A stretch of DNA of 49,900 bases, from NCBI GenBank assembly GCA_020847425.1, contig JADLCC010000231.1:1-49900 (forward strand), read 5' to 3'. This document shows positions 4,211-49,757 of this stretch, one piece after another; positions within the stretch are counted from its first letter, which is position 1; every line of letters begins with the position of its first letter. The stretch is from Saprospiraceae bacterium (lineage in GTDB: Bacteria; Bacteroidota; Bacteroidia; Chitinophagales; Saprospiraceae). The notes under the pieces are model-generated. The model ran no database searches, had not been told where the DNA came from, and saw nothing but the letters and a program-made list of their open reading frames with translations. Position numbers and translations under genes: made by a program.

Positions 4211-4310
4211 GTTGAGGGTTGAGGGGTTGAGATTGTTGAGGGTGATAACTCACGGCCTTTAAGTTACAGCCCTCAACAATCTCAACACCTCAACGTCTCA
4301 ACCCTCAACA
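4211..4310. repeat. Word-arm hairpin, family A (GTTGAGG units), copy 1
   Basis: Left arm GTTGAGGGTTGAGGGGTTGAGATTGTTGAGGGTG. Right arm CCCTCAACAATCTCAACACCTCAACGTCTCAACCCTCAAC. Starts 8 nt after the stop at 4203. Confidence 0.85.
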
Positions 4311-4451
4311 ACAAGTTTAATCAGCCTCCTCAAACATAATTTCTCCCCCATATTCTCGTTTCTGGAAAAAATACATTTTACAAACAACCTTTTTGCCCAA
4401 AACTGCGCCTTTGCTGATGGTTTGGCAGTTGTTGTTACCGTCAAAGCAAAT

Positions 4452-4459
4452 TAGTTTTG
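4452..4459 (+). promoter_or_regulatory. -7 promoter box TAGTTTTG
   Basis: Exact TAnnTTTG match, ~118 nt upstream of the TPR lipoprotein ATG. Confidence 0.3.
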
Positions 4460-4576
4460 AATAAACGATCGGTTGGATGGCCTGAAAGCAAAGACCTTCA
4501 AACCATCCAACTTTCAAACCATCAAACCATTATCATTCAGGATTCATCACAACAATCAGGCGAATCAGCGTATAGC

Positions 4577-7429
4577 ATGAAAAATTTTTGGAAAATATCG
4601 GCAGTTTTAAGTGTAGTACTGCTGGCCGGATGTGTTACACAAAAGAAAAAAGGAGCCGAACCGGGCTGGTTCAAAAAAGGTTACCACAACGTCACATCCA
4701 AATACAATTATTGGTTCAATGCCGATGAATTGTTCCGGCTCACCGAGACCAGACTGGCCTCCGAGCACAAGGATAATTACAACCAGATCCTGGAAGTGTA
4801 TCCTTCCGCTGCCACCGACCCGCAATCGGCGCGCGGCGACCTCGACAATGTGATCCTGAAAGCCTCCAAAGGTATTGCCCTGCACCGCGTCAGCGATTTT
4901 GCCGACGACTGTTACACCCTGATCGGACAGTCGCAATTCATGAAACGTGACTTTGAAACCGCAGAAGCGACTTTCAAATACATCAAAGACGAATACGACC
5001 CCAAGAAAAAAAGCAAAAGCAAACTGAAGTCGGCCAAAAAGAAAAAAGACAGCGGGAAAAAGAAAAAACTGACCAAGAAGCAGAAGAAAAAAGCAGCGAA
5101 AAAAAGGAAAAAAGCAGCCGAACAGAAACGAAAAGAAGCGGCGAAAAACAAAAAACTGGGTAAAACCACCACCACTACACCCGTCAAACCCGCCGAAACG
5201 CCCAAACCTGTCGTGGAAGAACTCACGCTGTCGGCCGACAACCCTTACACCAAGGGCCTGGAACGCACTTCCGCCTATCCGCTTGCCATGATCTGGTACG
5301 GCCGCACCCTCACCGAACGAGACAAGTACGACGAGGCAGAATTCCTGTTCCGCAGCCTCTGGGAAGACCGCTTTTTCCCAGTGTCCATGCAAGATGAACT
5401 CTCCACCGCCGAAGCATACCTGTGGATCAAACAAAAACGCTACGACAAAGCCATCGATCCTTTGTCAAAAGCCATCGCAGGTACCCGGAAGAAAAGCACC
5501 CGGGCCCGACTGGCCTATATCCTGGCTCAACTGTACGAGCGCTCCGGACAAAACGACGGCGCCTATGCCGCCCTGGAAACGGTGCTGAACAGCGCACCGA
5601 ATTATGAAATGGAATTTAATGCCCGCCTCCACCAGATCGAGGCCGGATGGGCCAATGGAAAAATCGCCGCCGCCGATGCCAACAAGAGCCTCGAACGTAT
5701 GTTGAAGGATGATAAAAACCTCGACTACCGCGATCAGATCTATTACACCATGGCCAGTATCGCGCTGAAAGACGGGCTGAAAAAAGATGCCATCGCTCTC
5801 CTGCGCAAGTCGCTCGATTTCAACCAGTCCAACACCGTACAACGGGCCGAATCATACCTGAAACTGGCCAACCTGTATTTTGAATCCGAAAACTTCGTGC
5901 AGGCCAAAAACTACTACGACAGTACCCTGACGGTATTGCCGCCGACCGACGAACGGTTCAAAACGGTAACGGACTACGCCACCAACCTCAAAGACATCTC
6001 GCGCCTGATACAAACCATTGCTGCCAATGACAGCATCGTGCGTATCTACCGCATGTCCGACGACGAACGCAAGGAATTCGGGAAAAACCTCAAAAAACAA
6101 CGCCAGGCTGAAGCACTGGCCGCCGCCAACGCGCTCGCCAGTAAAGCCCCGGCCGCCCCGACCACTTCCAAAGCGCCAACGCCGGTTGCCGGCGCCAAAG
6201 CCAGCACCTTCTATTTTTACAACGAATCCTTCCTCAAAAAAGGCCGCAAAGACTTCAGCCGTACCTGGGGCGAACGCAAACTGGAAGACAACTGGAGGAG
6301 AAGTGTCCGACCGGTCACCGGTTTACCCGGCGAAGACGTAGCCGGGATAGACAGCGCCCAAACCAATACCGTGAGCGATGCCGAACTGACGGACATGTTT
6401 AAAAACCTGCCCACCAGTGAAGCGGAACTGGCTGTGTTGCACATCGCTACCTATGAAGCCATGTACCAATTGGGCACTTTGTTCCGCGACCGCCTGCAAA
6501 ACAACCAGCGCAGCACCAGCACACTGGAAGAAATGCAAACCCGATACCCGGAAACCGATCGTTACGAAAAAGAGGCCTGGTACTATTGCTACCTCGGTTT
6601 TTCCGACCTGAAAAATCCCGCCCGCGCCCAGTATTACCTCGACAAACTGGTGGCCAAATACCCCAACAGTTCCTATGCCCGGGCGCTCACCGATCCGAAT
6701 TTCAGGAATTCCACCAAGGAAAAGGAAAACGAACTCAACAAATACTACGAGCAGACGTACAATACTTTCCAGTCGGGCAATTACAAGGATGCCTTTGACC
6801 TGTGTATCGAGGCGCCCAAAAAATATGGCTCACAGAACGTGCTGATGGCCAAATTCGCTTTGCTCAGCGCCCTCTGCGTCGGCAATTTGCAGGGCAACGA
6901 AGCCTACTGCAAAGCGCTCTCGGAAGTGATCGCCCGCTTCCCGGACAGCCCGGAATCGACCCGCGCCAAAGAAATTGCGCGGGTGATCAGTTGCAAAGGA
7001 TTTGAAGTGGCGGAAGCACCCAAAAAGCCGGAAAAAACGCCCATCGACGACTCCTTCACCCGCGAAGACGACAAATTGCACTATTTCCTGGTGGCCATTA
7101 CCGGCGACGTGCGCATCGACGATATCAAGGCGGCGATTTCGGACTACAACCGCGAAAACCACAAACTGGAACAGTTGCGCATCTCCAATATTTTCCTGGG
7201 CACCGACACCAACGAGCCGATCATCGTGATCCGGAAATTCGACAGCAAGGAACAGTCCATGCGCTTTTACACTGAAGTGAGCAAACAGAAAGACTTCCTG
7301 GGGGAAACGGACAAAAAAACGTATAAAAAAGAGTTTTTCGCCATCACACAGGAGAATTACCGCCGGGTGCTGAAAAACAAAACGCTGGAAGGATACCGGC
7401 AGTTTTTTGGGGAGAATTATTTGAAGTAA
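4577..7429 (+). CDS. TPR-repeat outer-membrane lipoprotein, possibly PorW/SprE-like T9SS component
   Basis: Start moved to the ATG at 4577 (MKNFWKISAVLSVVLLAGC lipobox). N-terminal YHNVTSKYNYWFN resembles my recollection of SprE/PorW N-termini. Multiple TPR-like helices and a Lys-rich disordered insert. The specific PorW/SprE assignment is inference. Confidence 0.6.
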   Translation: MKNFWKISAVLSVVLLAGCVTQKKKGAEPGWFKKGYHNVTSKYNYWFNADELFRLTETRLASEHKDNYNQILEVYPSAATDPQSARGDLDNVILKASKGIALHRVSDFADDCYTLIGQSQFMKRDFETAEATFKYIKDEYDPKKKSKSKLKSAKKKKDSGKKKKLTKKQKKKAAKKRKKAAEQKRKEAAKNKKLGKTTTTTPVKPAETPKPVVEELTLSADNPYTKGLERTSAYPLAMIWYGRTLTERDKYDEAEFLFRSLWEDRFFPVSMQDELSTAEAYLWIKQKRYDKAIDPLSKAIAGTRKKSTRARLAYILAQLYERSGQNDGAYAALETVLNSAPNYEMEFNARLHQIEAGWANGKIAAADANKSLERMLKDDKNLDYRDQIYYTMASIALKDGLKKDAIALLRKSLDFNQSNTVQRAESYLKLANLYFESENFVQAKNYYDSTLTVLPPTDERFKTVTDYATNLKDISRLIQTIAANDSIVRIYRMSDDERKEFGKNLKKQRQAEALAAANALASKAPAAPTTSKAPTPVAGAKASTFYFYNESFLKKGRKDFSRTWGERKLEDNWRRSVRPVTGLPGEDVAGIDSAQTNTVSDAELTDMFKNLPTSEAELAVLHIATYEAMYQLGTLFRDRLQNNQRSTSTLEEMQTRYPETDRYEKEAWYYCYLGFSDLKNPARAQYYLDKLVAKYPNSSYARALTDPNFRNSTKEKENELNKYYEQTYNTFQSGNYKDAFDLCIEAPKKYGSQNVLMAKFALLSALCVGNLQGNEAYCKALSEVIARFPDSPESTRAKEIARVISCKGFEVAEAPKKPEKTPIDDSFTREDDKLHYFLVAITGDVRIDDIKAAISDYNRENHKLEQLRISNIFLGTDTNEPIIVIRKFDSKEQSMRFYTEVSKQKDFLGETDKKTYKKEFFAITQENYRRVLKNKTLEGYRQFFGENYLK
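5003..5160 (+). repeat. Polypurine, A-run-rich tract encoding a Lys-rich low-complexity linker
   Basis: Encodes KKKSKSKLKSAKKKKDSGKKKKLTKKQKKKAAKKRKKAAEQKRKEAAKNKK, with several A6-A8 runs. Confidence 0.9.
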
Positions 7430-7450
7430 TACCCGGTCCACCCAGAATAT

Positions 7451-7552
7451 TGGGACACAGATAACACAGATTTGGCTTTGCCAAAACACAGATTTTTACA
7501 GATTTGCCAAAATCCGTTTCATCTGTGTCCCATCTGTGTCATCTGTGTCCCA
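7451..7552. repeat. Word-arm hairpin, family D (CACAGAT units)
   Basis: TGGGACACAGATAACACAGAT...CACAGAT...TACAGAT is opposed by ATCTGTGTCCCATCTGTGTCATCTGTGTCCCA. Confidence 0.8.
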
Positions 7553-7610
7553 TTTTTATTGCGCCACAATCTCTCCCCCGTTTTAACGTTTTTTACCCCA
7601 AAAATCAGTT

Positions 7611-9536: not shown

Positions 9537-9958
9537 GTGAGCAAAAAGGTAAAGGGCAAGAGGCAAAGAGCAAATTTGGACACTCGATAGGGATTGATGT
9601 GTACAACTGAGCCGTATTGCATGAGATAAAACAAATGCTTGAGTGAGTGCTTATTGACGGGGTGGCTTGAAGCCACCCCGTCAATAGCCCCCCTGGCTTA
9701 CACTGCAACTGAAGCCTAAGGATTTGAATCATGAAAATCCTCTCATCTATATAATCATGGTCAAAAAAAGAGGGGCGAACGTTAATTCCGTTCACCCCTG
9801 CATATATGGACACCCGCGCTTCAATCGGGCGGGCGGAAGGACGGCAGGCCCCTCGAAGGAGGCTGCTACCGTTTTCTTGAAATGCTTGATCCAAAAAGGC
9901 AAAAGCAACCATTATCGAGTGCTCTAATTTGCCCTTTGCCTTTTGTCATTTGCCTTTT
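9537..9958. repeat. Composite ~420-nt element with family H (GGCAAAG-type) terminal inverted arms
   Basis: Left AAAAGGTAAAGGGCAAGAGGCAAAGAGCAAATTTGGACACTCGATA pairs with right TATCGAGTGCTCTAATTTGCCCTTTGCCTTTTGTCATTTGCCTTTT. Internal hairpins are present. Fills the gap between convergent stops 9536 and 9957. Confidence 0.75.
9652..9686. repeat. 35-nt perfect palindrome inside element H
   Basis: TATTGACGGGGTGGCTT G AAGCCACCCCGTCAATA. Confidence 0.7.
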
Positions 9959-12803
9959 ATAGTTTCACCAGTTTCCGCGTCAAACCCGCTCCGTTCTGAT
10001 CCCGCAAAGTTAGGAAATAAACGCCCGGCAACCAATCGCTGTCGCTGATTTCCAGCACCTGCTCTCCGTCGGGAATATTGTCAAACCATTGACTATCAAT
10101 AAGTTTTCCATTAATATCGCTCACATCGAGGCGGATATCGCTGTTTTCCCGCAGGGTAAAATTCATGCGCAAAACATGGTCGGTTGCCGGATTTGGCCAC
10201 ACCATCACATCGCTGAGCAGCCCTGCTACTTCCCGCGTCGGGGTCGTATTCAGACCGTCCGGCAAATCCACATGCTGATCGATGTACAAGCGGTATTCGC
10301 CGCGGCCCAGGGTAAGCGACAAGGAGCCGCTTCCGGGTACGTTGAGCGTATCGCCGGTATAGTATTCAAACCAGGTTCCTGTTCCGTTGCCGGCCGGGAA
10401 CGTGATCGAATTGGTCAAAACACTTGTGCCCACATTGGCCACCACAAATACATCCAGGTCGGAGCCGTTCAGTTTAATCGTACGCAAGGCACCACCGCTG
10501 ATACTTAATTGAAAATCAGTGGTTTCAAATACATCGTGGTTTCTGCGCAGGTTCAACAATGCAGCCACTACATCGTGCAGGCGGCGGCGGTAAGGATCGT
10601 CGAGGTAATCCCAGCGGATGGGTTTAGGGCTTGTGCGGCATGCGTCACCCACACCAACGGTACCGTCTTCACAATAGTTAATCGGAAAATCATAACCCAT
10701 TTCACCGAATTGCCACAACATTTTTGGTCCCGGAACGGTGTACAGCAGGTTGCTCATCAGTTCGATCCGGCGCATCCCGATGGGCAGCGATTTGATGTTG
10801 TAATTGGCTGTTGTGCTGCCGAAGTTTTTACATTCGTAGGCGATCCGTTGCTCGTCGTGGCTTTCCATGTAACCCACCAGGTGCGGAACAGACCAGCCCC
10901 GCTGTACATAGGAAATACCCGCCAGACTGGTTCCGATGCCGCCGGAATAACCGAGCGCCACATCCTTGTAAGCGCCCCACATATTGCCCCAAAGCATCAT
11001 GCCGTATTCCGCCAGTACTTTTTCTTCCGAATTTTCCGCAAAATGTTCCAGAATGACATACGTCTCCGGGTCGATATCCCAGATAAAGTCGGCGTAATTT
11101 TTCCAGATGGCAATGCGGGATGCGTCGTACTGCCCCCAGGCGCCCGTGTTCCCCAAGGTGTTGAGCTGTGTAAAACCTTTGGATAGGTCGAACCGGAAAC
11201 CATCTACACGAAATTCTTCGAGCCAGTATTTTAAACAGTTTTTGGTGTAGGTCTTGGTTGCGAGGCTTTCGTGGTTAAAGTCATTAAATACGTTAAAATC
11301 GTGCTTGGCAACAGGATTCAGCCAGGGATTATTGGCAGCGGGGCGGTTGTTGGCGGCATCCCAATAGAGTTGGGCCAGTGGGCTGGCGCCAGTCGCTTGA
11401 TTGAATACCACATCCAGGATCACGGCAATGCCGCGCTGGTGGCAGGCATCGATCACCATTTTCAGCGCATCGGCCGTACCGTAATATTTATCCAGTGCCT
11501 TGTGGTAGGAAGGCCCGTAGCCCCAGTTGATGTTGCCGTCAAATTCATTCACCGGCATCAGTTCGATGGCTGTGATTCCAAGTTTATCTAAGTAATCGAG
11601 CGTATCGAGCAGGGTTGGGTAGTCATGCCTGGATAAAAAATCGCGCATCAGCAGTTCATACACTACCAGTTCGTTTTTTGCCGGGCGTACGTAGTCGGTG
11701 GCTTGCCAGTCGAATGGTGTCTGGGCTGTTTGCAGCACGGAAACAGCGCCGGTGGTCAGGCCTGAGGGATAAGCCGGCAGATCAGGGTACGTTTCATCCG
11801 GAATAAACCCATCATTTCCGGCATCGAGCACGAGTGTACTCAGCGGGTCGGCTATTTTCAATGCCCCATCTACAAGGTATTGAAAACGAACTAGTTGGCC
11901 GGGAGTGAGCCCCGTCAGTTCGATCCACCAGATTTTTCCATCCACACTGTTGCGCATCTGAAAAGCCGGGTCGGGCAGCCAGTTGCTGAAATCGCCGAGG
12001 GCAAAAATCACTTGTTTCCCCGGCGCGTACAATACAAGCCGCGCGGTGGTGTTGTCCACGTAAGTGATGCCCCATTCGCTCCCGGCAGGCGGGTCCTGCG
12101 CAGGCAGTTCGGCCGGAATCACGTAGTTGAAAACCGCTGTGTCCTGGAATGCGCCCGCAACCGACACAAAACTGATCCGGTGCAAACCTACGCCTGCAGC
12201 CGTCAGTGTTGTTTCCAGCACTTCGCCCTCCACAGTTGTGAGCAGGGTGCCGTTGTCGTACAGCGACAGGGTTCCGCTGAGCGAAGAGGCTGCTCTTACC
12301 GGAATCTGAGCACCCGGATCGACCACCAGCGCCGGCACAGCAGGCTCCAGAAATGCCGTGTGCAACGGAACGTCATCCGCGTACACATCGTAAAAAATAT
12401 CCGCTCCGTCTGCTGCGCGGCCTACAATACTGCCCGACTGGTTGCGGAAAACAAACGCAAGTTTCAGTACGGTTTCACCCGGCTGAATGCCAAAAAAGTC
12501 GTTGATGATAATGGTTTTTTTCCAAACATTGGGGGAAACATTCTGCATGGCGCCTACCGGATCGGCAATGCCCCAGGTCGTTGGCACATGCTGCCAATTG
12601 GATGGAGATGTACTGGCCGAAGTAATGACGCCCATGTGCGCATAAACGGGTGAAACACCGGTCAATGCGCCGTTGCCCTGTGTGGCATCAAAAAAAATAG
12701 TGATTTGCGCGGATTGTGTTGGGAACAAAGGCTGGCAACTGACCTGGGCCACAACAAGGCGCAGACTCAGCAACAAAAGCGGCAAGAGGAGTACTTTTTT
12801 CAT
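9957..12803 (-). CDS. GH13 alpha-amylase-family glycoside hydrolase with T9SS C-terminal sorting domain
   Basis: Start trimmed to 12803 (MKKVLLLPLLLLSLRLVVAQ signal). GH13 regions GFRFDLSKG (II), ILEHFAE (III), YMESHDEQR (IV), DVVFNQ (I). C-terminus WPNPATDHV...YFLTLRD...RKLVKL resembles a Por secretion CTD. Confidence 0.85.
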   Translation of the reverse strand: MKKVLLLPLLLLSLRLVVAQVSCQPLFPTQSAQITIFFDATQGNGALTGVSPVYAHMGVITSASTSPSNWQHVPTTWGIADPVGAMQNVSPNVWKKTIIINDFFGIQPGETVLKLAFVFRNQSGSIVGRAADGADIFYDVYADDVPLHTAFLEPAVPALVVDPGAQIPVRAASSLSGTLSLYDNGTLLTTVEGEVLETTLTAAGVGLHRISFVSVAGAFQDTAVFNYVIPAELPAQDPPAGSEWGITYVDNTTARLVLYAPGKQVIFALGDFSNWLPDPAFQMRNSVDGKIWWIELTGLTPGQLVRFQYLVDGALKIADPLSTLVLDAGNDGFIPDETYPDLPAYPSGLTTGAVSVLQTAQTPFDWQATDYVRPAKNELVVYELLMRDFLSRHDYPTLLDTLDYLDKLGITAIELMPVNEFDGNINWGYGPSYHKALDKYYGTADALKMVIDACHQRGIAVILDVVFNQATGASPLAQLYWDAANNRPAANNPWLNPVAKHDFNVFNDFNHESLATKTYTKNCLKYWLEEFRVDGFRFDLSKGFTQLNTLGNTGAWGQYDASRIAIWKNYADFIWDIDPETYVILEHFAENSEEKVLAEYGMMLWGNMWGAYKDVALGYSGGIGTSLAGISYVQRGWSVPHLVGYMESHDEQRIAYECKNFGSTTANYNIKSLPIGMRRIELMSNLLYTVPGPKMLWQFGEMGYDFPINYCEDGTVGVGDACRTSPKPIRWDYLDDPYRRRLHDVVAALLNLRRNHDVFETTDFQLSISGGALRTIKLNGSDLDVFVVANVGTSVLTNSITFPAGNGTGTWFEYYTGDTLNVPGSGSLSLTLGRGEYRLYIDQHVDLPDGLNTTPTREVAGLLSDVMVWPNPATDHVLRMNFTLRENSDIRLDVSDINGKLIDSQWFDNIPDGEQVLEISDSDWLPGVYFLTLRDQNGAGLTRKLVKL

Positions 12804-15390: not shown

Positions 15391-15473
15391 GTGTTTAGTT
15401 TTTTGTGTTTAGTGTATAGGATAAGGCTGACAGTCAATCCTTTGCGAAATACAAAACACAAAAAACTAAACAC
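15391..15473. repeat. Word-arm hairpin, family G (GTGTTT-type units), copy 1
   Basis: GTGTTTAGTTTTTTGTGTTTAGTGTA is opposed by ACAAAACACAAAAAACTAAACAC. Confidence 0.8.
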
Positions 15474-15525: not shown

Positions 15526-15981
15526 GTGTTACTCGAACTCGATCTCCTTTCTTTTCAGTCCCGCCTCCGACTGTCGCAATCAGCCGGTAAACACTTTGTT
15601 TACGATCCCATCCGCAGAAAAGACATTGTGCTCACTCCGGAGGAACTGCTCCGGCAGATGGTCTTGCTGTACCTGCTGGAACATAAAAACTATCCAGCGA
15701 ACCGGATTCGGGTAGAAATTGGTATTGAGTTGAACGGCATGAAAAAGCGCTGCGATATTGTAATTTACGATCCGGAACTGCGCCCCTGGCTGCTGCTGGA
15801 ATGCAAATCGCCTAAAGTATCGCTTAATCAGGCTACTTTTGAACAGGCCGCGCGGTATAACTTACAGTTGCAAGCGCCTTTTTTAGCCATCACCAACGGC
15901 CTCGCTACTTATTGCGCCGGACTGGATTTTGAGGGTCAGAGTTTTCAGTATTTACCGGAATTGCCAGAATACTTAACGTGA
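15526..15981 (+). CDS. HsdR N-terminal-like PD-(D/E)xK domain protein (stand-alone)
   Basis: 151 aa with a GTG start. LTPEELLRQ..LLYLLE.KNYP...I.VE..I.LNG..KRCDIVIYD....PWLLLECK...L matches the type I restriction enzyme HsdR_N small-protein family pattern, including D...ExK. Confidence 0.65.
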   Translation: MLLELDLLSFQSRLRLSQSAGKHFVYDPIRRKDIVLTPEELLRQMVLLYLLEHKNYPANRIRVEIGIELNGMKKRCDIVIYDPELRPWLLLECKSPKVSLNQATFEQAARYNLQLQAPFLAITNGLATYCAGLDFEGQSFQYLPELPEYLT

Positions 15982-16082: not shown

Positions 16083-17297
16083 TCAGTGTTCCTCCGGCCT
16101 CCCAATAATCCTCCCCTCATTAAAAGTCTTCTGCAACGCTTCCTCTTCCTTGCGCTCCTCTTCTGTGATCAGGGGCATATCCATCCGGGACAAATCCGGT
16201 TGTCCGGCATCTACCCAAGCGGTGTACCAGGCGGAACTGACTGCGTGGATGGCCGCGCGCATCCGGCGTTCGACCATATTGTTGAGGGCGTCAGAATAGG
16301 CGGCGGAAAAATCGCGGCAAGGCGCCAGTACGGCCCTGCCATTGCGCATATCGGGGCACGACTGCCGGTCGGGCGGGAAGGTCATCCGGAGTGCCCGTTC
16401 GATAGTTAACACGCTGTCCACCATGGTGTTACTGGCAAAAACCATATCCCAGAACCAGTCTGTGGGTTTGGCGACGTATTCGGGTTTACCCACGAAGTAG
16501 TCGTAATTTTCGTCTGCAAAAAGTTCGGGAATCCGGCTTTCCCAGAATCCGTGTATGCCATGCTGACCGGTTTTTTGTCCGTTGTAATTGCTGGTGGTGT
16601 GCAGCGGCACATGCGCATCGCCGATGTAATGGCCCATGTCGGAACACAGGCGGAGGATCCGTTTCGAATCGCGGCGGCGAAAGGCTTCCGTCAGGTCGCG
16701 TTGCATACGCTGCAAATTCCAGGGCAAATTGCCGTGTTCCGACATCCGGTCCCGGAAAAATGCCGCCTTGAAATCCGTTGGCAAGTCGTGCCGTGCCAGA
16801 AACGATGCCAGAGAGTCGGTATCGAGCATTTCATCGTCGGCATACAAACGGGGTAAAACCTGGGTATTAAAGTATTTTTTATAATCAGGCAGCAAGGTTT
16901 CTGCAACAGGCATTTGATTGCCAAATAGTTGCACGGAATCACCGGTGTTTTTCACGACCCAAATTTCCGTAAAATACTGCATCGCTTCGAGGCGCTGCCG
17001 GGGCAATTTATCGAAAGGTGGGCCATAATTATCCAGGTCGATGTAATGCCTCGGTGCTTCGTGTTTGGAGGCGTACCGGCGCATATCGGGGTCTACGGCA
17101 TGGTCCGTGATATAGTCGATGTTCGGTTTGAAAAACGCCATCATCTGCGGCGGCAAGGTCAGTACGGCCAGGCGGTTGATACGTTTATGTGCAAAAAAGC
17201 CCCACTCCGGTGTAGCCGGCGCTATGGAGTGAAAGGAACTCAGGCTGAGCAGGAGCCATACGGCAGCAAAAGGAAGAATACGTTGCAAGGCAATCAT
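16083..17297 (-). CDS. Secreted zinc-dependent phospholipase C / S1-P1 nuclease superfamily protein
   Basis: Start trimmed to 17297 (MIALQRILPFAAVWLLLSLSSF signal); the longer ORF reads through a hairpin repeat. Motifs WGFFAHKRIN, HYIDLD, IGDAHVPLHTT and HGFWE suggest His/Asp metal ligands. Confidence 0.55.
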   Translation of the reverse strand: MIALQRILPFAAVWLLLSLSSFHSIAPATPEWGFFAHKRINRLAVLTLPPQMMAFFKPNIDYITDHAVDPDMRRYASKHEAPRHYIDLDNYGPPFDKLPRQRLEAMQYFTEIWVVKNTGDSVQLFGNQMPVAETLLPDYKKYFNTQVLPRLYADDEMLDTDSLASFLARHDLPTDFKAAFFRDRMSEHGNLPWNLQRMQRDLTEAFRRRDSKRILRLCSDMGHYIGDAHVPLHTTSNYNGQKTGQHGIHGFWESRIPELFADENYDYFVGKPEYVAKPTDWFWDMVFASNTMVDSVLTIERALRMTFPPDRQSCPDMRNGRAVLAPCRDFSAAYSDALNNMVERRMRAAIHAVSSAWYTAWVDAGQPDLSRMDMPLITEEERKEEEALQKTFNEGRIIGRPEEH

Positions 17298-17317
17298 TTT
17301 GGAACGAAAGATAAGGG

Positions 17318-17437
17318 ATGGAACACGGACTGGACGGATTGGACACGGATTTTTTCCCATAGTACCCCATCGCAACAACTCTGCTATACGGAGGAAAAGA
17401 AAAAATCCGTGCCCAATCCGTCCAATCCGTGTTCCAT
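17318..17437. repeat. Word-arm hairpin, family E (GGAC(N)GGATT units)
   Basis: ATGGAACACGGACTGGACGGATTGGACACGGATTTTTT is opposed by AAAAAATCCGTGCCCAATCCGTCCAATCCGTGTTCCAT. Confidence 0.85.
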
Positions 17438-17444: not shown

Positions 17445-18923
17445 TCAACTCCACACCCTCAACTGCCGGATATCACCCCATTTCACCCATTTAAAAAGCA
17501 ACAATCCCGGCAAACAGGCTGCAGCGCACAGTGCCATTTTGACGTACCAGAGGAAAGAAGTTGTTTCGAGAACTATAACATTTACCAAAAGGATAAACAG
17601 CACATAACCAATTACTTGTGCAACAGATTGCAGCCTCGGCCGCCATTTGAACGTGTGCAGGGTAAGCCCGACCATACTTGCAGCGATAAATGCCTGCGTC
17701 GAAACGGCGGCAATGGCGGCTCCAAATGCCTGCCAGCGGGGCATCAGCAGCAGATTCAGCAGCAGATTCAATCCGATGCCTGCGATAAAAAAGCGGTTCA
17801 TTGCCGCCACCTGCCCGTGCGCTGTCAGCAAAGTGCTGAAAATATAGGTGGTGCTGACCGGTACAAAAGCCCAGATCAGTACGCCCAGCGTATCCCAGCG
17901 ATAAGGGGAAGCATGAAACGGCATCATCAGGTGCAGTAAATCTTCCCGGGCAAAACAGATGGCTGCGGCCAAAGCCACACTCCCGGCCCAGATGAGGCGG
18001 AAACTCAGCGATAAAAGTGGTTTCACCAGCTCCACTTTTTTCTGCATGCGGGCAAACATCGGCAGCAACAACGATGCAAACAGATACCCGAGCATGTTGC
18101 AGGCATCGAGCACGCGATAGGCGCCCGCAAATACCTCCGCATGCGCTTTCCCACAAAAACGCTCCAGCAATACGCCATCGAGCCGGGTATAGGCAAACAT
18201 CAGGAAAACGACCAGCGCATACGGCAAACTTCCCCGAAACAGCACGAGCAGCGTGGGGTAACCCGCCCGCCAGTTATTGGCCCAGGTAGGCCGCACCCTG
18301 AACCGCACCTTGCTCCGCAACAGACCATAGGCAATGGCGGCCGTCAGCGCCAGCGGAATCGTCTGCGCCAGTGCAAATGCTTCGATATGCAGGGTTCTGC
18401 CTGCCGGGTGGGTCCACAACAACAAGCCGCAGGTGAACAGCATCAGCAACTTGTCCAGCGACGACAACACACTGTCCATGCGGTAAAAGCCGAGCCCCGA
18501 CAGGTTGGAGCGCAGGAAAAAGATCATCTGTATCAGCACCTGATTGACCAGCAGGATCAGCAACAGCAGTAATGCTCGGCTTTCATACTGCATAGCGGAG
18601 GCCATCGCCAGCGATATGACAACATAAACGACACTGAGTAATATCTTGATGGCCAGCAGGTTGGGAAAATATTTCGGGAGCAGTTGCGGGTGCTGGCTGA
18701 TGTGGCGGTTGTTGAAACTCTGAATCCCGAAATCATTGAGAATCTGAAAAATATAGGTCAGATTCATCAGAGCGAAATACAGGCCGTATTCCGATCCTAT
18801 CCGATTTTGTACCGTCAGGTCGATCCCGAAAATAAAAAAGGGCTTTATCAGCAGGTTGATAAAGAGCAGGAAAAGGATGTTGACGATAAATTCGCGGTTC
18901 ACGGGGCAAAGGTAAGATTGCAA
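17445..18923 (-). CDS. Polysaccharide biosynthesis protein / oligosaccharide flippase (MOP superfamily, Wzx-like)
   Basis: 492 aa, strongly hydrophobic with about 12-14 predicted TM segments. Its size and pattern are typical of MOP flippases. Confidence 0.6.
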   Translation of the reverse strand: MQSYLCPVNREFIVNILFLLFINLLIKPFFIFGIDLTVQNRIGSEYGLYFALMNLTYIFQILNDFGIQSFNNRHISQHPQLLPKYFPNLLAIKILLSVVYVVISLAMASAMQYESRALLLLLILLVNQVLIQMIFFLRSNLSGLGFYRMDSVLSSLDKLLMLFTCGLLLWTHPAGRTLHIEAFALAQTIPLALTAAIAYGLLRSKVRFRVRPTWANNWRAGYPTLLVLFRGSLPYALVVFLMFAYTRLDGVLLERFCGKAHAEVFAGAYRVLDACNMLGYLFASLLLPMFARMQKKVELVKPLLSLSFRLIWAGSVALAAAICFAREDLLHLMMPFHASPYRWDTLGVLIWAFVPVSTTYIFSTLLTAHGQVAAMNRFFIAGIGLNLLLNLLLMPRWQAFGAAIAAVSTQAFIAASMVGLTLHTFKWRPRLQSVAQVIGYVLFILLVNVIVLETTSFLWYVKMALCAAACLPGLLLFKWVKWGDIRQLRVWS

Positions 18924-18938
18924 CGCGGATTTCTTTTA

Positions 18939-19033
18939 CCACAATAGGCACATAGAGCCTCCACATAGATCACACATAAGATGCGTGATGTCTTTTATGT
19001 GATCTATGTGGAGGTTCTATGTGCCTATTGTGG
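18939..19033. repeat. Word-arm hairpin, family F (CACATAG units)
   Basis: CCACAATAGGCACATAGAGCCTCCACATAGATCACACATAAG is opposed by CTTTTATGTGATCTATGTGGAGGTTCTATGTGCCTATTGTGG. Confidence 0.85.
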
Positions 19034-19048
19034 TGAAAACTCCTGCGT

Positions 19049-20671
19049 TTACCGGTAATAAAACACCACCGCAAACGTAATCACCAGCAGCACAACAGCC
19101 ATCACGCGGTAGTTCTGGTACCAGGGAATACCCACCAGCGCGGCAGAATCTTCCTCGTACACACTGTGGTTCCAGGTAAAACCGACGAGTTTTTCAGCAG
19201 GCGGCGCAGCAGTAGCCAGGCTCACCACCGCCTGAATAGTGGCGCAAATGGCAAAAATGATCGGCGCTTTCATCAGAAAGTGTACGCTGTTCCAGGCAGG
19301 AGAAAGCCCTGTCACTTCACTGGCTACCGTGAACAAGGCAATGACCAACCCTGCCATCAACGCTGCAAATGCACCATCGGCATTAGCTCGTTTCCAGAAC
19401 AAACCCACCAGGAATATGGCTACTACCGGCGGACTGATCAATGCCAGAACGCCTTGCATGTAGTTCATCAGCGATTCGAATTTGGCAATTTGCGGCGCCC
19501 AGGCCACCGTTATCACCATAAAACAAACGGTAGCGATCTGGCCTGCCCGAACCAGTCCTTTGGAGTCCATATTCGGGCGGAATTTTTGCACAAAATCCAT
19601 CGTCACCAGCGTACTGGCCGAGTTGAGCGTTGCGCTCACCGCAGAAGCCATGGCCGCCAGGAAACCCGCTACTACGAGTCCTACCAGTCCTGCGGGCAGC
19701 AACTGGAACACCAGGGTCGGGTAAGCGCCGTCCGCAAAGTTTTTGAGTTGACCCGCGTACATTTCCTGCAGGTTGGGGTACAATTTCAGCGCCGCGAGCC
19801 CAGGGAATACCAGCAAAAACAGGATCGGAATTTTGAGCAGGGCAGCAAACAAAGCGCCTTTGCGGGCCTCGTTCGCGTTGCGGGCGCTCAGGGCGCGCTG
19901 CACGATAAACTGGTTGTTGCACCAAAAATAAAAACCCAGCAAGGGCACGCCCAGCAGCAACCCAGGCCAGGGCATGTCCGGGTGATCGATCGGCTGCACC
20001 AGGTGCATAAACGACGGATCTTTGGCATTGGCATAATCCACAATGGCATCGTAGCCCCCTGCTTTGTCATACACGATAAAGCATAAAATCACCGCTGAAA
20101 TCAGCAAAATAATCGTGTTGACCATTTCCGTCCGCATCACGGAAGAGAGACCCCCAAAAATGGTATATCCCGCAGCAAAAATGGCCAATGCGCTGACAAT
20201 CAATAACGTATTCGCTTCAGGATACACCAGTTTGGCAATAACAACCCCGGCAAAAAGGGTGCCCGCCGTATCGATAAAGATATTGCCGACCAGCGTAATA
20301 AAGGAAAAGTAGTAGCGCGAGCGCACGTCATACCTTTTTTCAAAAAATTCGGGCATGGTATACACCTTCGATTTCAGGTAAAACGGTAGAATAAACACGC
20401 AGAAAAAGGTGAGTACAATGGAAGCCATCCACTCATAATTGAAAAATACAATGCCGCCTTTGTATGCGCCTCCGGTAATGGCAATCAGGGAATTGGAGGA
20501 AATATTTGCCGAAAACATGGAAATCCCAATCACATACCAGGGCATATTGCGCCCGGCAAGAAAATACTCTTCCGAACTTCCTGCTTTCCGGTGGTAAAAT
20601 CCATATGCCACAATCGCTGTAATGTAGCCGACGATAATGACCAGATCAATAGTGGTAAATGTAAAATTCAT
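19049..20671 (-). CDS. Sodium:solute symporter family (SSF/SGLT-like) transporter
   Basis: 540 aa and polytopic. N-terminal DLVIIVGYITAIVAYGFYHRK...EEYFLAGRNMPWYVIG is typical of SSF transporters. Confidence 0.85.
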   Translation of the reverse strand: MNFTFTTIDLVIIVGYITAIVAYGFYHRKAGSSEEYFLAGRNMPWYVIGISMFSANISSNSLIAITGGAYKGGIVFFNYEWMASIVLTFFCVFILPFYLKSKVYTMPEFFEKRYDVRSRYYFSFITLVGNIFIDTAGTLFAGVVIAKLVYPEANTLLIVSALAIFAAGYTIFGGLSSVMRTEMVNTIILLISAVILCFIVYDKAGGYDAIVDYANAKDPSFMHLVQPIDHPDMPWPGLLLGVPLLGFYFWCNNQFIVQRALSARNANEARKGALFAALLKIPILFLLVFPGLAALKLYPNLQEMYAGQLKNFADGAYPTLVFQLLPAGLVGLVVAGFLAAMASAVSATLNSASTLVTMDFVQKFRPNMDSKGLVRAGQIATVCFMVITVAWAPQIAKFESLMNYMQGVLALISPPVVAIFLVGLFWKRANADGAFAALMAGLVIALFTVASEVTGLSPAWNSVHFLMKAPIIFAICATIQAVVSLATAAPPAEKLVGFTWNHSVYEEDSAALVGIPWYQNYRVMAVVLLVITFAVVFYYR

Positions 20672-20713: not shown

Positions 20714-20807
20714 AATGTTGAGGGGTTGAGGGGTTGAGATTGTTGAGGGTGGTCACTCAAGCCTGGGTTACAACCCTCAACAATCTCAACACTCAACATT
20801 CTCAACC
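20714..20807. repeat. Word-arm hairpin, family A (GTTGAGG units), copy 2
   Basis: GAATGTTGAGGGGTTGAGGGGTTGAGATTGTTGAGGGTGG is opposed by AACCCTCAACAATCTCAACACTCAACATTCTCAACC. The loop is similar to copy 1. Confidence 0.85.
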
Positions 20808-33207: not shown

Positions 33208-33257
33208 TTGCAAGGCAGCCACGTGCTCATGAACATCATTCACAAACTCAATCAATT

Positions 33258-34082
33258 ATGAAAAATAAAATTCTATTGCTTTCTTCACTCTTGGCAGCTT
33301 GTTTTTTACTAATCATGGCCTGTCACAAAATTGAAGACAATGACTCCGTTGTTCGGGCAAGTTCCATCCCATTTATCGCTATCCAAAATGTAAATAGTGC
33401 ATATGTGTATGGGCAAGGACAAACCAGTATTTATTCCGATATCCCCGACGTGCTGGCTATTGCTGTTGACTCTGTTGTAGGTTTTGAAGGCGGTTACGGT
33501 GGCAAAACCGGTTCTGACTCGATCAAAATTTTGAAAAGTGAAATTGTAATCTGGCCAGACACCGTAAGCCTTGGCGGCAAAGCAATAACGGTTGAGAAAT
33601 TTAATAAATCCAATTTCAAAACCTTTGTCACCACCAATATCGTTATCGCAGGCCCTATCGCCAACCCCGGCCCAACGGCTATGGAAGGTGGTTACCTCAG
33701 GGCGGCTACCGGCGTCACCATCCTATTAAAAAAGGTGTTTGACGGCGTTTACGTTATCGATAACGCGGGTGGTGCAAATGTGGCTCCATTTCCTTACCTG
33801 TTGTACAATTACAAAAGTTCCAGCGGTACCGACAGCCTTGCATTCCCCATTCAACCCAATGAATGCGGAGGCGGCCTTCAACTGGTTGGTCCAACTGCTC
33901 CGTTCTCTTTGCGCGCATCGGATTATGCAACACAATACCCACCAATCATTGCATCTATGGCTCCTGTGACGCTGCAATGGCGTGTGTTCACATTCTCTTC
34001 CGCATCTAACGCCGCCGTTCAGCCAGGCAACGGTGGTTTGTGCACCTGGGGCGTAGGCGTCAGGACATTTGTGAAGCAATAA
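33258..34082 (+). CDS. PUL-associated lipoprotein of unknown function (copy 1)
   Basis: Start trimmed to the ATG at 33258 (MKNKILLLSSLLAACFLLIMAC lipobox); the longer ORF reads through hairpin repeat B1. Paralog of 34228..35049. Confidence 0.7.
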   Translation: MKNKILLLSSLLAACFLLIMACHKIEDNDSVVRASSIPFIAIQNVNSAYVYGQGQTSIYSDIPDVLAIAVDSVVGFEGGYGGKTGSDSIKILKSEIVIWPDTVSLGGKAITVEKFNKSNFKTFVTTNIVIAGPIANPGPTAMEGGYLRAATGVTILLKKVFDGVYVIDNAGGANVAPFPYLLYNYKSSSGTDSLAFPIQPNECGGGLQLVGPTAPFSLRASDYATQYPPIIASMAPVTLQWRVFTFSSASNAAVQPGNGGLCTWGVGVRTFVKQ

Positions 34083-34110
34083 CACAAATCATTCTATCTG
34101 TTTTTTTACA

Positions 34111-34151
34111 ACAAGAGTCATCCCGTTTGTTCGGGATGACTCTTGTTTTTT
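34111..34151 (+). terminator. Intrinsic terminator of PUL copy 1
   Basis: Perfect 15-bp stem ACAAGAGTCATCCCG/CGGGATGACTCTTGT, 6-nt loop, then a T6 run. Confidence 0.75.
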
Positions 34152-34161: not shown

Positions 34162-34197
34162 AAAAAAAAACGCGGGTGCTGTTTGGCAGCACCCGCG
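34162..34197 (-). terminator. Intrinsic terminator of PUL copy 2
   Basis: On the minus strand, stem CGCGGGTGCTG/CAGCACCCGCG is followed by a T9 run (A9 at 34162-34170 on the plus strand). Confidence 0.75.
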
Positions 34198-34227
34198 TCA
34201 TCATTACAGGTAAAAAAATACCCTGAA

Positions 34228-35049: not shown

Positions 35050-35169
35050 AATCGAATGAGTTTTTTTAAAGAATGTCCAAGAATGTGTGGCGAACCTTTT
35101 ACAACGTATTGATTTTCAAAAAATTGCACAAGGTGCGCCACACAGGCACTTATGAACGCTCTTGATTTT

Positions 35170-43745: not shown

Positions 43746-43807
43746 CCGCGTAAACTTGAAGAGGCGCAACGGGAGATATCCTGTTGCGCCTCTTCAAGTT
43801 TACGCGG
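43746..43807. terminator. 25-bp perfect hairpin between convergent genes (possible bidirectional terminator)
   Basis: CCGCGTAAACTTGAAGAGGCGCAAC (43746-43770) is the exact reverse complement of 43783-43807. 12-nt loop and no U-tract. Confidence 0.5.
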
Positions 43808-46060: not shown

Positions 46061-46195
46061 AAGTCCATAAGATTTATATTGTCTTTCGAATATATTATAA
46101 CCATTCCCGCTAGCGATTTGAAGCAGGAATGGTCTACTAGTTCTAAATTATCTCAATAACATTGGTCTCGATAAAGTAAGTAAGGTCAGTATAAA

Positions 46196-47575: not shown

Positions 47576-47921
47576 AACAGAAGGACAATTGAAGGTGAAC
47601 GTTGGAAGCGTTGCCAAAGGTAAATAATTGAACATGAATTTCCATCTGCATGACAACCGCATATGCCCGGTGCAAGGTTAGTGCACCATAAATGGTTGTA
47701 ATGTTTAACTTTTAAGGCGATTGAACGTGCAACAATTAAACATTTTTGCCAAAAACCGACAGTTAGCGGTCATTTATACCAACCAAATTCAGGACATGCT
47801 GTTTGTGTTGTTGTATTGCGGCGGCCAGGGAAACGGCACACATCCAGTTTATCCGGTTTTTGCCCTTTATGATTTTTTACTCATCTCAGGTTCATATCCA
47901 TTTAAAACAATTTCACAAACC

Positions 47922-49580
47922 ATGCGTAACGCCCTTTCCTTACTCGCTTTTCTGCTCTTCATGGGCAACCTCTTTTCCCAGACAGCCCGTGTACAAATCA
48001 TACACAATGCCCCTACGCCCACGGTGGATATTTATGCGGGCACAGACAAGTTACTCGACAATTTCGCTTTCCGGACCGCCACACCTTTTATCGACGTACC
48101 TGCAGATGTTGTTATCGCTATCGGTGTCGCTCTGGGCAACAGCGCTGCTGCTTCGGAATCCATCGCTACCTTCGACGTTTCCTTTGAATCAGGCAAAACA
48201 TACGTCGTTGTGGCTACCGGTGTTGTCGGCGGCAACCCGGGTTTCACCCTGAAGGTATTTGATATGGGCCTGGAGACAACCACAGATCCCAATAACGTTG
48301 GCATCCTGTTTTTCCACGGCTCTCCCGATGCGCCGACGGTGGATGTGCTGACAGGCGGCGCACCGATCATCAACGACGCTTCCTATGGTGATTTCCAGGG
48401 GTATTTGCAGGTGCCTGCAGCCAGTTATGACCTGAGTGTCACACCCGGAAACGACAACAACACCATTGTGGCTTCCTACCGCGCCGATCTTTCGTTCTGG
48501 AAAGGCCGCACCGCCGTCATCTTTGCCAGCGGATTTCTGGGTAGCGGCAGCCCCAAATTTGAGCCATGGGTGGCCCTGAGCAACGGCGGCACCTTCCCTT
48601 TGCAAACCCTGGCAGCGCCGCCTACCCCGCCGCTTACTACGGCCCGTGTACAGATTATCCACAATGCGCCTACTCCTACCGTGGATGTGTACGCAGGTGA
48701 TGCGCTGCTGCTCGACAATTTTGTTTTCCGCACCGCTACACCTTTTATTGATGTGCCGGCCGGTGTAACCATTCCGATTGGCGTGGCCTTGGGTACAAGT
48801 ACATCGGCAACTGACGCTATCGCTACGTTCCCGGTACAATTCCAGGCAGGCAAACGGTATGTGGTTGTAGCGACAGGGATTGTTGGTGGAACGCCGGGAT
48901 TCACCCTGGCCGTATTCGACATGGGCCTGGAAACCGTAGCCGCCAATAACGTCGGCATTCTGTTCTTCCACGGTTCGCCGGATGCGCCTACCGTCGATGT
49001 ACTGACCGGAGGAGCGCCCATTATCGACAACGCTTCTTATGGCGATTTCCAGGGGTATCTGGAAGTACCCGCAGCGAGCTACGAACTCAGCATAACGCCC
49101 GGTAACGACAACAATACCGTGGTGGCAAAATACCAGGCTGATCTTTCTTTCTGGAAAGGCCGCACCGCCGTCGTTTTTGCCAGCGGCTTCCTGAGCGGCG
49201 CAAATCCCGGCTTCGAGCCCTGGGTTGCCTTGAGCAATGGCGGTACCTTCCCGCTTCAGGCGATCCCTCAGTTGCAAAACCCTTCGGATGATCTGCAACT
49301 GCGCAGCGCAGGTTTTGTAACCCGCCTCAGCGCTTTCCCCAACCCTACAGCCGGCCGTTTTACCATAAACCTGGAACTGGAAGACGCGACCGATATGCAG
49401 GCTATTGTGGCCAATAAACTGGGCCAGGTGGTGCGCGAAAGCAACTTTGGCGCATTGCCCAAAGGATTCAATACCCTGGAATTTGAACTGGGCGATCTGC
49501 CGGCCGATCAGTATTACATTTCATTGCGCAGCAAAACGGGCGTGCAGAGCATCCCGGTGCTGGTAGTGGGAAGGCCGTAG
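47922..49580 (+). CDS. Tandem DUF4397-like domain protein with T9SS C-terminal sorting domain
   Basis: Start trimmed to the ATG at 47922 (MRNALSLLAFLLFMGNLFSQ signal). Two ~219-aa units start with ARVQIIHNAPTPTVD(I/V)YAG. C-terminus FPNPTAGRFTINLEL...YYISLRS resembles a Por CTD. Confidence 0.75.
   Translation: MRNALSLLAFLLFMGNLFSQTARVQIIHNAPTPTVDIYAGTDKLLDNFAFRTATPFIDVPADVVIAIGVALGNSAAASESIATFDVSFESGKTYVVVATGVVGGNPGFTLKVFDMGLETTTDPNNVGILFFHGSPDAPTVDVLTGGAPIINDASYGDFQGYLQVPAASYDLSVTPGNDNNTIVASYRADLSFWKGRTAVIFASGFLGSGSPKFEPWVALSNGGTFPLQTLAAPPTPPLTTARVQIIHNAPTPTVDVYAGDALLLDNFVFRTATPFIDVPAGVTIPIGVALGTSTSATDAIATFPVQFQAGKRYVVVATGIVGGTPGFTLAVFDMGLETVAANNVGILFFHGSPDAPTVDVLTGGAPIIDNASYGDFQGYLEVPAASYELSITPGNDNNTVVAKYQADLSFWKGRTAVVFASGFLSGANPGFEPWVALSNGGTFPLQAIPQLQNPSDDLQLRSAGFVTRLSAFPNPTAGRFTINLELEDATDMQAIVANKLGQVVRESNFGALPKGFNTLEFELGDLPADQYYISLRSKTGVQSIPVLVVGRP
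47982..49265 (+). repeat. Intragenic tandem duplication (2 x ~657 nt) within the DUF4397-like gene
   Basis: Unit 1 starts with ACAGCCCGTGTACAAATCATACACAATGCC at 47982. Unit 2 starts with ACGGCCCGTGTACAGATTATCCACAATGCG at 48639. The encoded units are collinear and highly similar. Confidence 0.85.
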
Positions 49581-49588
49581 GTTTTTGA

Positions 49589-49757
49589 GGTTGATAAGGG
49601 TTGATAAGGGTTGATAAAGGTTGATAAAGGTTGATAAGGGTTTATAAGGGTTGATAATAGCCACTCAAATAGAGGGAAATCACGTCATCGAGTGCCCCTT
49701 ATAAACCCTTATCAACCCTTATCAACCTTTATCAACCTTTATCAACCCTTATCAACC
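49589..49757. repeat. Word-arm hairpin, family B (10-nt GGTTGATAAG units), copy 2
   Basis: Seven 10-nt units are opposed by six CCTTATCAAC-type units, with about two mismatches over ~60 bp. Lies between convergent stops 49580 and 49764. Confidence 0.9.

Follow-up and report, generated by a model that had tools for sequence, protein, structure and literature searches.

Intergenic spacers in a 49.9-kb stretch of Saprospiraceae DNA (contig JADLCC010000231.1 of assembly GCA_020847425.1, positions 1 to 49,900; hereafter the window) contain long hairpins whose arms are tandem arrays of short words. It is proposed that these word hairpins are lineage-enriched, dispersed palindromic repeats at gene 3' ends, whose arms arise through slippage and stay complementary through template switching, and which as RNA behave like repetitive extragenic palindromes (REPs); this reading is tentative, and we regard it as plausible while stopping short of calling it probable. 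In population behavior the elements resemble REP doublets forming hairpins (REPINs) or the miniature transposable elements with inverted repeats known as MITEs, and in anatomy the inverted heptamer arrays of Xanthomonas; the combination is a variant of an already described but poorly understood repeat type. Word-arm hairpins occur in the window at 1.40 per 10 kb, about 25 times their density (0.056 per 10 kb) in a control set of 1.43 Mb from ~79 other genomes, mostly of distant taxa, taken from among the matches listed in a GTDB scan with the sodium:solute symporter (SSF). Loci syntenic with the window were compared in related genomes (L010 and L217, both from GCA_963851935.1, and L218, L219, L220 and L221); gene DNA identity between the window and GCA_963851935.1 is about 80-85%, and in L010, L217, L218 and L219 word hairpins are about as dense as in the window.

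A sequence-only reading of this DNA had listed twelve such elements in families A to H, all of which are present at, or a few nt from, the positions it gave. They are set out here together with an extra hairpin missing from that list:

A1, 4209-4311: GTTGAGG(G) words, starting 5-7 nt past the stop codon of an NTP-transferase gene (3181-4203, + strand).
Extra branched hairpin, ~4414-4541: GGTTTGATGG / CCATCAAACC words, upstream of a TPR gene.
D, 7446-7557: CACAGAT / ATCTGTG words with a C/A-rich 5' arm, 16 nt past the stop codon at 7429.
H, 9537-9958: GGCAAAG-type word arms at 9544-9596 and 9906-9958, in a convergent gap.
G1, 15391-15473: GTGTTT-type hairpin in a divergent gap.
C1, 15977-16081: CGTGA(A/G)T hairpin filling a convergent gap; its first word contains the TGA stop of the gene at 15526-15981.
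E, 17318-17437: ACGGATTGG words, 1-7 nt from the stop codon of the gene at 17445-18923 (- strand).
F, 18934-19038: 48-bp stem of CACA(A)TAG words, 10 nt from the stop codon of the SSF symporter gene (19049-20671, - strand); its 5' arm is C/A-rich, as in D and in no other element.
A2, 20714-20807: GTTGAGG(G) hairpin in a divergent gap.
C2, 21888-21994: CGTGAGT words in 41-nt arms, 98% complementary, filling a convergent gap 3 nt from both stop codons.
G2, 25778-26006: GTGTTTT-type outer arms round a 150-nt interior, abutting the stop codon at 26007.
B1, 33045-33209: (G)GTTGATGAAG x5.6, 21 nt past the SusD stop codon at 33023, with AAATCGCTTCAT in the apical loop.
B2, 49588-49758: GGTTGATAAG x6.9 in arms of 63-68 nt, 93-97% complementary, 7 nt past the stop codon at 49580.

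An inverted-repeat scan (ungapped arms of at least 22 nt, at least 80% complementary, spanning no more than 450 nt) returned 11 clusters in the window, 10 of them wholly intergenic. It returned none from any of 40 dinucleotide-shuffled versions of the entire window, and shuffling gap by gap (40 dinucleotide shuffles per gap) also left 0 inverted repeats. Compared with dinucleotide shuffles, the host gaps gave RNAfold z scores of -8.9 (A1), -7.2 (D), -8.1 (H), -6.4 (G1), -6.7 (C1), -9.1 (E), -15.3 (F), -6.4 (A2), -14.0 (C2), -3.5 (G2), -10.0 (B1) and -14.6 (B2). The intergenic enrichment supposed by the sequence-only reading thus holds within the window, and so does the excess of fold strength, which runs from G2 at the weak end to F at the strong end. 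Fold-back chimeras of metagenome assembly, or chance low-complexity sequence, could give a similar picture, as some assemblies are known to contain palindromic artefacts and the DNA apparently comes from a metagenome-assembled genome (MAG). However, the elements are internal to a 49.9-kb contig, shuffled sequence yields no inverted repeats, and several related genomes, stemming from different projects, have homologous or analogous elements. Moreover, G1 and C1 are base-identical in nine independent metagenome contigs from other samples, and B1 was found again in another sample with an equal number of words and 1 single-nucleotide polymorphism (SNP). Because the same elements recur in independent contigs from other samples, the hairpins are not an assembly artefact; the independent assemblies effectively refute that explanation, to which we leave next to no probability.

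The word character of the arms was judged from the share of each arm lying in exactly repeated 6-mers, compared with dinucleotide shuffles of the same arm. The claim that the arms are tandem word arrays stands for 11 of 14 arms (P <= 0.05). B (period 10, 88-92% autocorrelation), C and A give the strongest signal, G1 (P 0.057) and G2 (0.081) a weak one, and the left arm of H one that is not significant. Two ordinary hairpins used as controls (43746-43807 and 35084-35144) have zero repeated 6-mers. Element H had been described as a 420-nt hairpin; it does have word-type arms at its ends, but it is not simple, since these enclose ~300 nt with structures of their own, namely a perfect inner hairpin (9650-9687) and a conserved element resembling a small RNA (9770-9879). 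Complementarity between the two arms is higher than the identity of words inside one arm (98% vs 65-68% in C2, 95% vs 39-46% in E and 92% vs 41% in F), and in C2 and B2 the variant words stand in mirrored order on the two arms, indicating that the arms are copies of each other and not independent arrays.

Families differ in what their members share. A1 and A2 are homologous through the loop, as are B1 and B2, with unrelated flanks in both pairs, so that A and B represent dispersed copies, ~80-90% identical, and not independent inventions; C1/C2 and G1/G2 have only their words in common. The three B copies (B1, B2 and one in L217) share an inner GTTTATAA variant and the loop, and have word counts of 4, 5.6 and 6.9. 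As they differ in the outer words, growth has taken place in the outer part, and a "Russian doll" mode, in which the element repeatedly inserts into its own apex, was rejected because the copies agree in the innermost words and loop and differ outside. The apical loop of B also carries the motif AAATC[AG]C[GT]TCAT (33122-33133, 49677-49688 and L217 6651-6662), which has the sense of the upstream gene in all three copies and is found a single time in 1.4 Mb of control DNA; recognition site and RNA seed are conceivable roles for it. A bias in arm orientation was found as well: the 5' arm is richer in G than in C in 22 of the clade's 24 word hairpins (P = 4e-5, the family copies not being independent) and in all 8 word hairpins from other taxa (P = 0.008), and hairpins without words show no such G/C bias (9:5 and 12:16).

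Among close relatives, whole elements come and go, nest in one another and replace each other. E is absent from L220, where its two co-directional flanking genes lie 24 nt apart, and A2 is absent from L220 and L221; L219 has empty sites for C1 (a 1-nt gap) and F, and the A1 site is empty in L218, so that the presence or absence looked for in orthologous gaps was found. Elsewhere the site is occupied by something else. The A1 site of L217 holds a B-family element, recognized by its words and its loop motif AAATCGCTTCAT and flanked by A4...T6, the C2 site of L010 an H-type (AAAGGCAAAAG) hairpin, and the D site of L217 a plain 38-bp perfect hairpin; at the G1 site the 3' arm is decayed in L010, and large CGGATT-word hairpins stand instead in L218 and L219. 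The arms of H in L217 close round the left part only, and L219 is without the H element. Nesting is seen in L010, in which an F-type hairpin lies inside the loop of E, the orthologue of F (a variant of which is also found in L220) is enclosed by a larger inverted repeat with H-type ends, and G2 keeps its arms with the interior swapped for another nested hairpin. The words of one element can also change on both arms together: from the window to L010, A2 retains its loop core and passes from GTTGAGG to GGTTTGA, and C1 retains its loop and passes from ACTCACG to ACTGACG. The branched hairpin at 4414-4541 is conserved in L217, and its word type makes up the arms of the A2 orthologue in L010. Nearly all orthologous gaps of the window and GCA_963851935.1 contain some hairpin, even where the sequence is not homologous, and each genome has its favorite words, CGGATT-type words being dominant in L218 and L219 and a GAAGTGC...GTAG family common in GCA_963851935.1. 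The view that the families are unrelated in primary sequence is therefore correct as to the words, which differ, but it overlooks the dispersed homologous copies of A and B and the occupation of one site by different families in sister genomes.

The GAAGTGC / GAGTCCT family of the relatives (L217 14984-15112 and 13543-13721; L010 14839-14981; L218 921-1053) has outer word arrays round a conserved inner stem, GTC[CT]GTAG[AC]GT[AG][CT][AG]CC; the copies differ from one another in compensating ways, and their loops are unrelated. Its GTAG recalls that of GTAG-tagged REPs, but is paired and leaves no free tail. A further relative, L014, has a very long (GGGTTTT)n / (AAAACCC)n inverted pair at 9586-9988, with 73-nt arms and a 250-nt interior. 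Solitary direct arrays are also present in relatives (L011 ~9600-9720; L014 11624-11741 and ~18050-18120), with TTGACYG in ~17 copies, CAACTAAT and ACGAATA as their words; word arrays therefore occur unpaired in the clade too.

The closest described case is that of the (GGGAATC)n convergent inverted pairs of Xanthomonas campestris and X. citri, which number 70-75 per genome, are 89-93% intergenic, lie at a mean of 28 nt from the upstream open reading frame (ORF), much closer to its 3' end than to the following gene, and are rare in divergent gaps; their sites are conserved across species, whereas length and sequence vary, and that study did not settle on a function (Rehm et al. 2015, PLoS One, PMC4692102). 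Convergent inverted pairs of heptamer arrays had thus already been described, and the implication that the architecture in the window is an unknown one is not supported. All 12 elements take the form of such a pair, with units of 7-10 nt: one short-word tandem array per strand, convergent and close together. Like the Xanthomonas pairs they generally have the G-rich strand first, can form a stem-loop, are intergenic, stand nearer the upstream 3' end (feet 0-21 nt from stop codons) than the gene that follows, and favor convergent over divergent gaps. Unlike in Xanthomonas, which has essentially one word per genome and has drawn interest for G-quadruplexes, at least 8 word types of 7-10 nt coexist here, and there is no dominant G-quadruplex-forming word: runs of GGG(G) are present several times in family A alone, and most words cannot form a quadruplex. 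The elements here further differ in their longer stems, family-specific conserved loops, nesting, replacement of one family by another at a site, and in the phylum, Bacteroidota.

The other likeness is to REPs, bacterial interspersed mosaic elements (BIMEs) and REPINs of Proteobacteria (Bertels & Rainey 2011, PMC3116915; Di Nocera et al. 2013, PMC3733652), with which the elements share extragenic palindromic inverted doublets, a long hairpin, location at gene 3' ends, dispersal, lineage specificity and the lack of target-site duplications; REPs can also stabilize the mRNA upstream of them. Dispersed extragenic copies are indeed arranged as hairpin doublets at gene 3' ends in the window, but the 20-40-nt imperfectly palindromic singlet with a GTAG or CGTC foot is missing: the arms consist of non-palindromic words, and A to H are untagged. 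The elements, which the sequence-only reading did not recognize as REPs or BIMEs, thus depart from these in the tag and the palindromic singlet, and are REP/REPIN-like in population behavior and 3'-end position. Correia elements have 26-bp terminal inverted repeats and a TA target duplication, and BOX of Streptococcus pneumoniae a ~45-nt repeat unit in the middle that is not mirrored in the arms. Both Correia elements (also NEMIS) of Neisseria and BOX are similar to the elements here in being 100-200 nt long, intergenic, hairpin-forming and polymorphic for presence or absence, and BOX in addition has a tandem internal module. Defined ends with a target-site duplication, as in a MITE, were not found: no duplication is present at the flanks of A1/A2 or B1/B2/L217 or at the filled versus empty E site, and the outer ends vary by whole words. 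Nor do the arrays have the 24-48-nt direct repeats and unique spacers of similar size that define a CRISPR array, as their 7-10-nt units run head to tail without spacers and in inverted pairs; the sequence-only reading was right to set aside both CRISPR and Correia-type MITEs. No Rfam family matches either, a scan at gathering thresholds giving 0 matches for the families and E-value scans only sub-threshold, spurious look-alikes of miRNA precursors on long hairpins. Integron attC sites were considered and rejected, because the core polarity is opposite (RYYYAAC ... GTTRRRY) and the neighbors are ordinary chromosomal genes in both orientations.

Arrays of 7-nt words are known from other free-living bacteria. 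In Beggiatoaceae, Cyanobacteria and some Bacteroidetes, start codons are preceded by TAACTGA direct repeats (MacGregor 2015, PMC4679880). These arrays and the cyanobacterial short tandemly repeated repetitive (STRR) sequences resemble the elements here in being intergenic 7-nt-word arrays of free-living bacteria with large genomes, but they are direct, lie mostly just upstream of starts and are not paired into hairpins. A short direct GATAACT array (= TAACTGA in another register) of ~3-4 copies is present in the window at 176-206, ~42 nt upstream of the hemC start at 248. As for mechanism, quasi-palindrome template-switch mutagenesis in Ripley's model copies one arm onto the other. Template switching between the arms of imperfect inverted repeats, an established replication error, creates, perfects and extends stems in one event, and has been proposed as the cause of a 5'-G/U : 3'-C/A asymmetry of stems (Monttinen & Loytynoja 2022, PMC8794818). 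Unlike the elements here, template switching is a mutational mechanism and no element family, and is not reported to make tandem-word arrays or genome-wide populations of 100-170-nt hairpins.

Some look-alikes occur elsewhere, namely in Blastocatellia (CGTGATG; Acidobacteriota), Gemmatimonadaceae (CACAGAG; Gemmatimonadota) and Rhodothermales (GTTCGAC, AGTTCAA), with further single cases in one MAG labelled Rickettsiales and one other Bacteroidota MAG; those in other phyla lie 3-12 nt from the stop codons of long ORFs. The less close relative L011, whose symporter is 90% identical, has long plain hairpins and direct arrays and no word hairpins. A metagenome scan for GTTGAG arrays gave 120 matches, of which 14 lie in hairpins, the rest being direct arrays or unrelated sequence; the scan also gave ~10 hairpins with GTTGAGA arms from unknown organisms, and no copy of family A itself. 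Two metagenome contigs carry head-to-head (TTTAGGG)n ... (CCCTAAA)n arrays of the plant/algal telomere repeat type (L118 802-1462 and L159 775-1235), which are probably eukaryotic telomere-fusion-like or subtelomeric sequence.

The position of the hairpins relative to genes raises the question whether they are selected terminators or insulators, acting bidirectionally in convergent gaps, with very long stems that lack U-tracts and with words that are a by-product of lengthening. The hairpins stand directly behind stop codons: the feet nearest to a stop lie within 10 nt of it in 11 of 13 cases and within 21 nt in all 13, and C1 and C2 fill their gaps, as the sequence-only reading had seen. Strong folds (z <= -5 in gaps of at least 50 nt, seven clade loci pooled, some gaps being orthologous and thus not fully independent) are present in 15 of 21 convergent, 17 of 43 co-directional and 8 of 28 divergent gaps and are therefore commonest where 3' ends meet (convergent vs divergent, P = 0.004). 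Selection for termination would also agree with the presence of some hairpin, homologous or not, in nearly all gaps orthologous with GCA_963851935.1, and with the A/T runs that flank some copies (A4...T6 at the B element in L217, T5 at D). However, a T run follows only 1 of ~14 sense-direction ends, that of D, although the window has canonical terminators with T6-T9; the stems measure 25-70 bp, compared with the short GC stem of ~5-15 bp of an intrinsic terminator, and because U-tracts are nearly always missing the word hairpins are not canonical intrinsic terminators. Moreover, A2 and G1 do sit in divergent promoter gaps, as had been reported, the E site is a 24-nt junction of co-directional genes in a close relative, and several other sites are empty in relatives. 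No G-U strand asymmetry pointing to selection on RNA was seen either: fold energy and G-U count, evaluated on both strands with respect to the upstream gene, favored the transcribed strand in only 2 of 7 co-directional cases. Since the G-U versus A-C asymmetry does not track the transcribed strand, the pairing is more likely kept at the DNA level than selected in RNA, and we consider an origin as terminators unlikely. A mobile origin has to be weighed against the same sites. The elements might be non-autonomous ones akin to MITEs or REPINs, which a transposase acting on folded single-stranded DNA (a REP-associated tyrosine transposase, RAYT, or an IS200/IS605-like Y1 enzyme) would move in trans, with the tandem words as reiterated protein-binding or guide sites and insertion aimed at hairpins or gene 3' ends. 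This would account for the dispersal of loop-homologous A and B copies among non-homologous flanks, for the empty sites, for different families at one site in sister genomes and for elements nested in the loops of others; the absence of target-site duplications is what Y1 transposases predict, the polarity with a G-rich 5' arm is fixed, and a family of the sister genomes with a GTAG inner stem, GAAGTC[CT]GTAG..., has conserved arms and variable loops that recall the GTAG-tagged REPs (PMC3733652). Yet no transposase or RAYT is found among the genes called in ~190 kb of clade sequence, a weak objection because one copy per genome would do; the copies are only ~80-90% identical and give no hint of recent bursts, A to H have no GTAG or CGTC tag, and a head-to-tail period of 7 nt is too short for typical binding sites in duplex DNA. 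Transposition alone does not explain the concerted change of words in place with the loop kept, as in L010, and we hold this origin to be improbable.

Fixed polarity is the starting point of another explanation, de novo synthesis at double-strand breaks, in which one word would be added to both 3' ends by a polymerase working reiteratively, be it telomerase-like, a primase-polymerase or a reverse transcriptase, and the joined ends would give (W)n-(W')n with the synthesized G/T-rich strand pointing to the center. The geometry fits the G-rich 5' arms (22/24 and 8/8) and the "always convergent" pairs of Xanthomonas, it recurs in the head-to-head (TTTAGGG)n/(CCCTAAA)n arrays of L118 and L159, and solitary direct arrays do exist in relatives. 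We know of no candidate enzyme, and the mirrored order of variants speaks for copying from arm to arm and not for independent synthesis; conserved loops of 30-50 nt and whole-element homologues at other loci are not expected, the many words of each genome would require many templates, and the polarity of D and F is opposite, all of which makes this very improbable. A broader possibility is an unnamed class that crosses phyla, consisting of self-extending palindromes with a dedicated machinery for making or moving them (a hairpin-specific HUH enzyme or a reiterative polymerase), of which the Xanthomonas pairs would be a special case; we think this quite unlikely. It is similarly doubtful that such a machinery fixes the G/T-rich arm first and the position after the stop codon, and that the palindromes adjust how translation terminates, how mRNA decays from its 3' end or how much read-through occurs, at hundreds of genes in each genome.

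We tentatively prefer growth by slippage and template switching. An element would consist of a family-specific core or loop and two arms, (W)n ... (W')n, in the untranslated spacer right after a stop codon. A 7-10-nt seed in one arm would be duplicated in tandem by replication slippage, and intrastrand template switching, that is, quasi-palindrome correction, would copy the change to the other arm, so that the stem lengthens symmetrically and stays nearly perfect without selection. Growth would halt where a coding sequence or promoter would suffer, a limit that on this proposal accounts for arms lying against stop codons and for the exact filling of convergent gaps. The 5' arm may serve as the master copy in template switching, as we suggest, and its loss of cytosine would spread to both arms and hence leave C-poor 5' arms on both strands. 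If transcribed, the element would form a stem-loop of 25-70 bp 0-20 nt past the stop codon, which would block 3' exonucleases and read-through and oblige the ribosome, as it terminates, to open the lowest part of the stem, in a REP-like manner, and which would not work as a canonical Rho-independent terminator. According to the account in PMC12306157 of Liang et al. 2015, REPs no more than 15 nt from a stop codon stall ribosomes and trigger mRNA cleavage; similar stalling is plausible here because the hairpins are equally near to stop codons.

Several points weigh against this proposal. The arrays are stable within the species, G1 and C1 being identical in 9 samples and B1 having the same word count with 1 SNP, and no slippage or template-switch event was caught directly in the sequences compared. 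Slippage and template switching do not explain how A and B spread to unrelated loci, nor why different families occupy one site in sister genomes, and the loci examined (~190 kb from the clade) yielded neither a transposase nor a target-site duplication or a conserved target. The conserved and oriented loop motif of B hints at a sequence-specific function or a recognition site, and the strong bias in arm orientation needs an extra assumption, either the cytosine loss on a "master" 5' arm or selection.

Other structures were noted at gene ends. A plain perfect hairpin of 29 bp with a 4-nt loop (43746-43807, z = -14), with neither words nor a T run, exactly fills a 71-nt convergent gap, so that long plain hairpins also stand at 3' ends in the host genome. 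Canonical terminators with a GC-rich stem and T6-T9 are present at 34108-34151, 34162-34202 and 27942-27973, and of these two stand back to back in one convergent gap; ordinary intrinsic terminators thus exist in this organism too. The sequence-only reading had overlooked the plain hairpin and the terminators at 34108-34151 and 34162-34202. We also considered whether the arms form a three-frame stop barrier, and rejected it: stop trinucleotides in 5' arms number 106 vs 81 +/- 6 in mononucleotide shuffles, yet their distribution is bimodal and not universal, and there are none in the 5' arms of E, the CGGATT family of L218 or L094.

The element inside H, downstream of an OmpA-like gene (9770-9879, + strand), is ~110 nt long, has three hairpins and ends in a stem followed by CCGTTTTCTTG. 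It is found again at L217 12166-12275, L218 ~11935-12044 and L219 ~3468-3575, and is present in all four related genomes with or without the H element, with four base pairs kept through two-sided changes. It has no Rfam match and probably represents a small RNA, so far undescribed, that carries a terminator of its own. The window as a whole has a G+C content of 49.7%, is 11.7% intergenic and carries an ordinary Bacteroidota chromosomal gene set, including two SusC/SusD pairs, proteins with type IX secretion system sorting domains, hemC, pdxJ and the sodium:solute symporter gene; no tRNA or tmRNA was found in it, and for two of its proteins the closest matches with a name come from MAGs that are labelled Lewinellaceae or Saprospiraceae. 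At 2490-3123 a gene for a PIN-domain toxin (2725-3123) follows a small ORF whose counterpart in L217 has a weak PhdYeFM antitoxin match, which looks like a type II toxin-antitoxin pair inside a housekeeping region.

The longest ORFs at 16083-17378 and 33096-34082 run at their 5' ends into E and B1 (likely starts 17297 and 33258), and that at 4457-7429 into the gap holding the 4414-4541 hairpin (likely start 4577). Word hairpins can thus mislead ORF-based gene calling, several ORF starts and one stop codon falling inside them, and they are also expected to break assemblies.

If the proposed origin is true, the window shows, at unusual density, the birth and growth of bacterial intergenic hairpins, in which slippage and template switching from arm to arm turn a short stem into a palindrome of 50-70 bp that is perfect without selection. 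It would then join three rarely connected literatures, those on free-living bacteria and their excess of long 5-11-nt simple repeats, on REP/REPIN palindromes and on template-switch mutagenesis. The system is a tractable one, with many families per genome, clear presence/absence polymorphism among close relatives and a fixed polarity that needs explanation. Stems standing 0-10 nt past stop codons are likely to influence how translation terminates, how stable mRNA is and how much read-through occurs at many genes of Saprospiraceae/Lewinellaceae.

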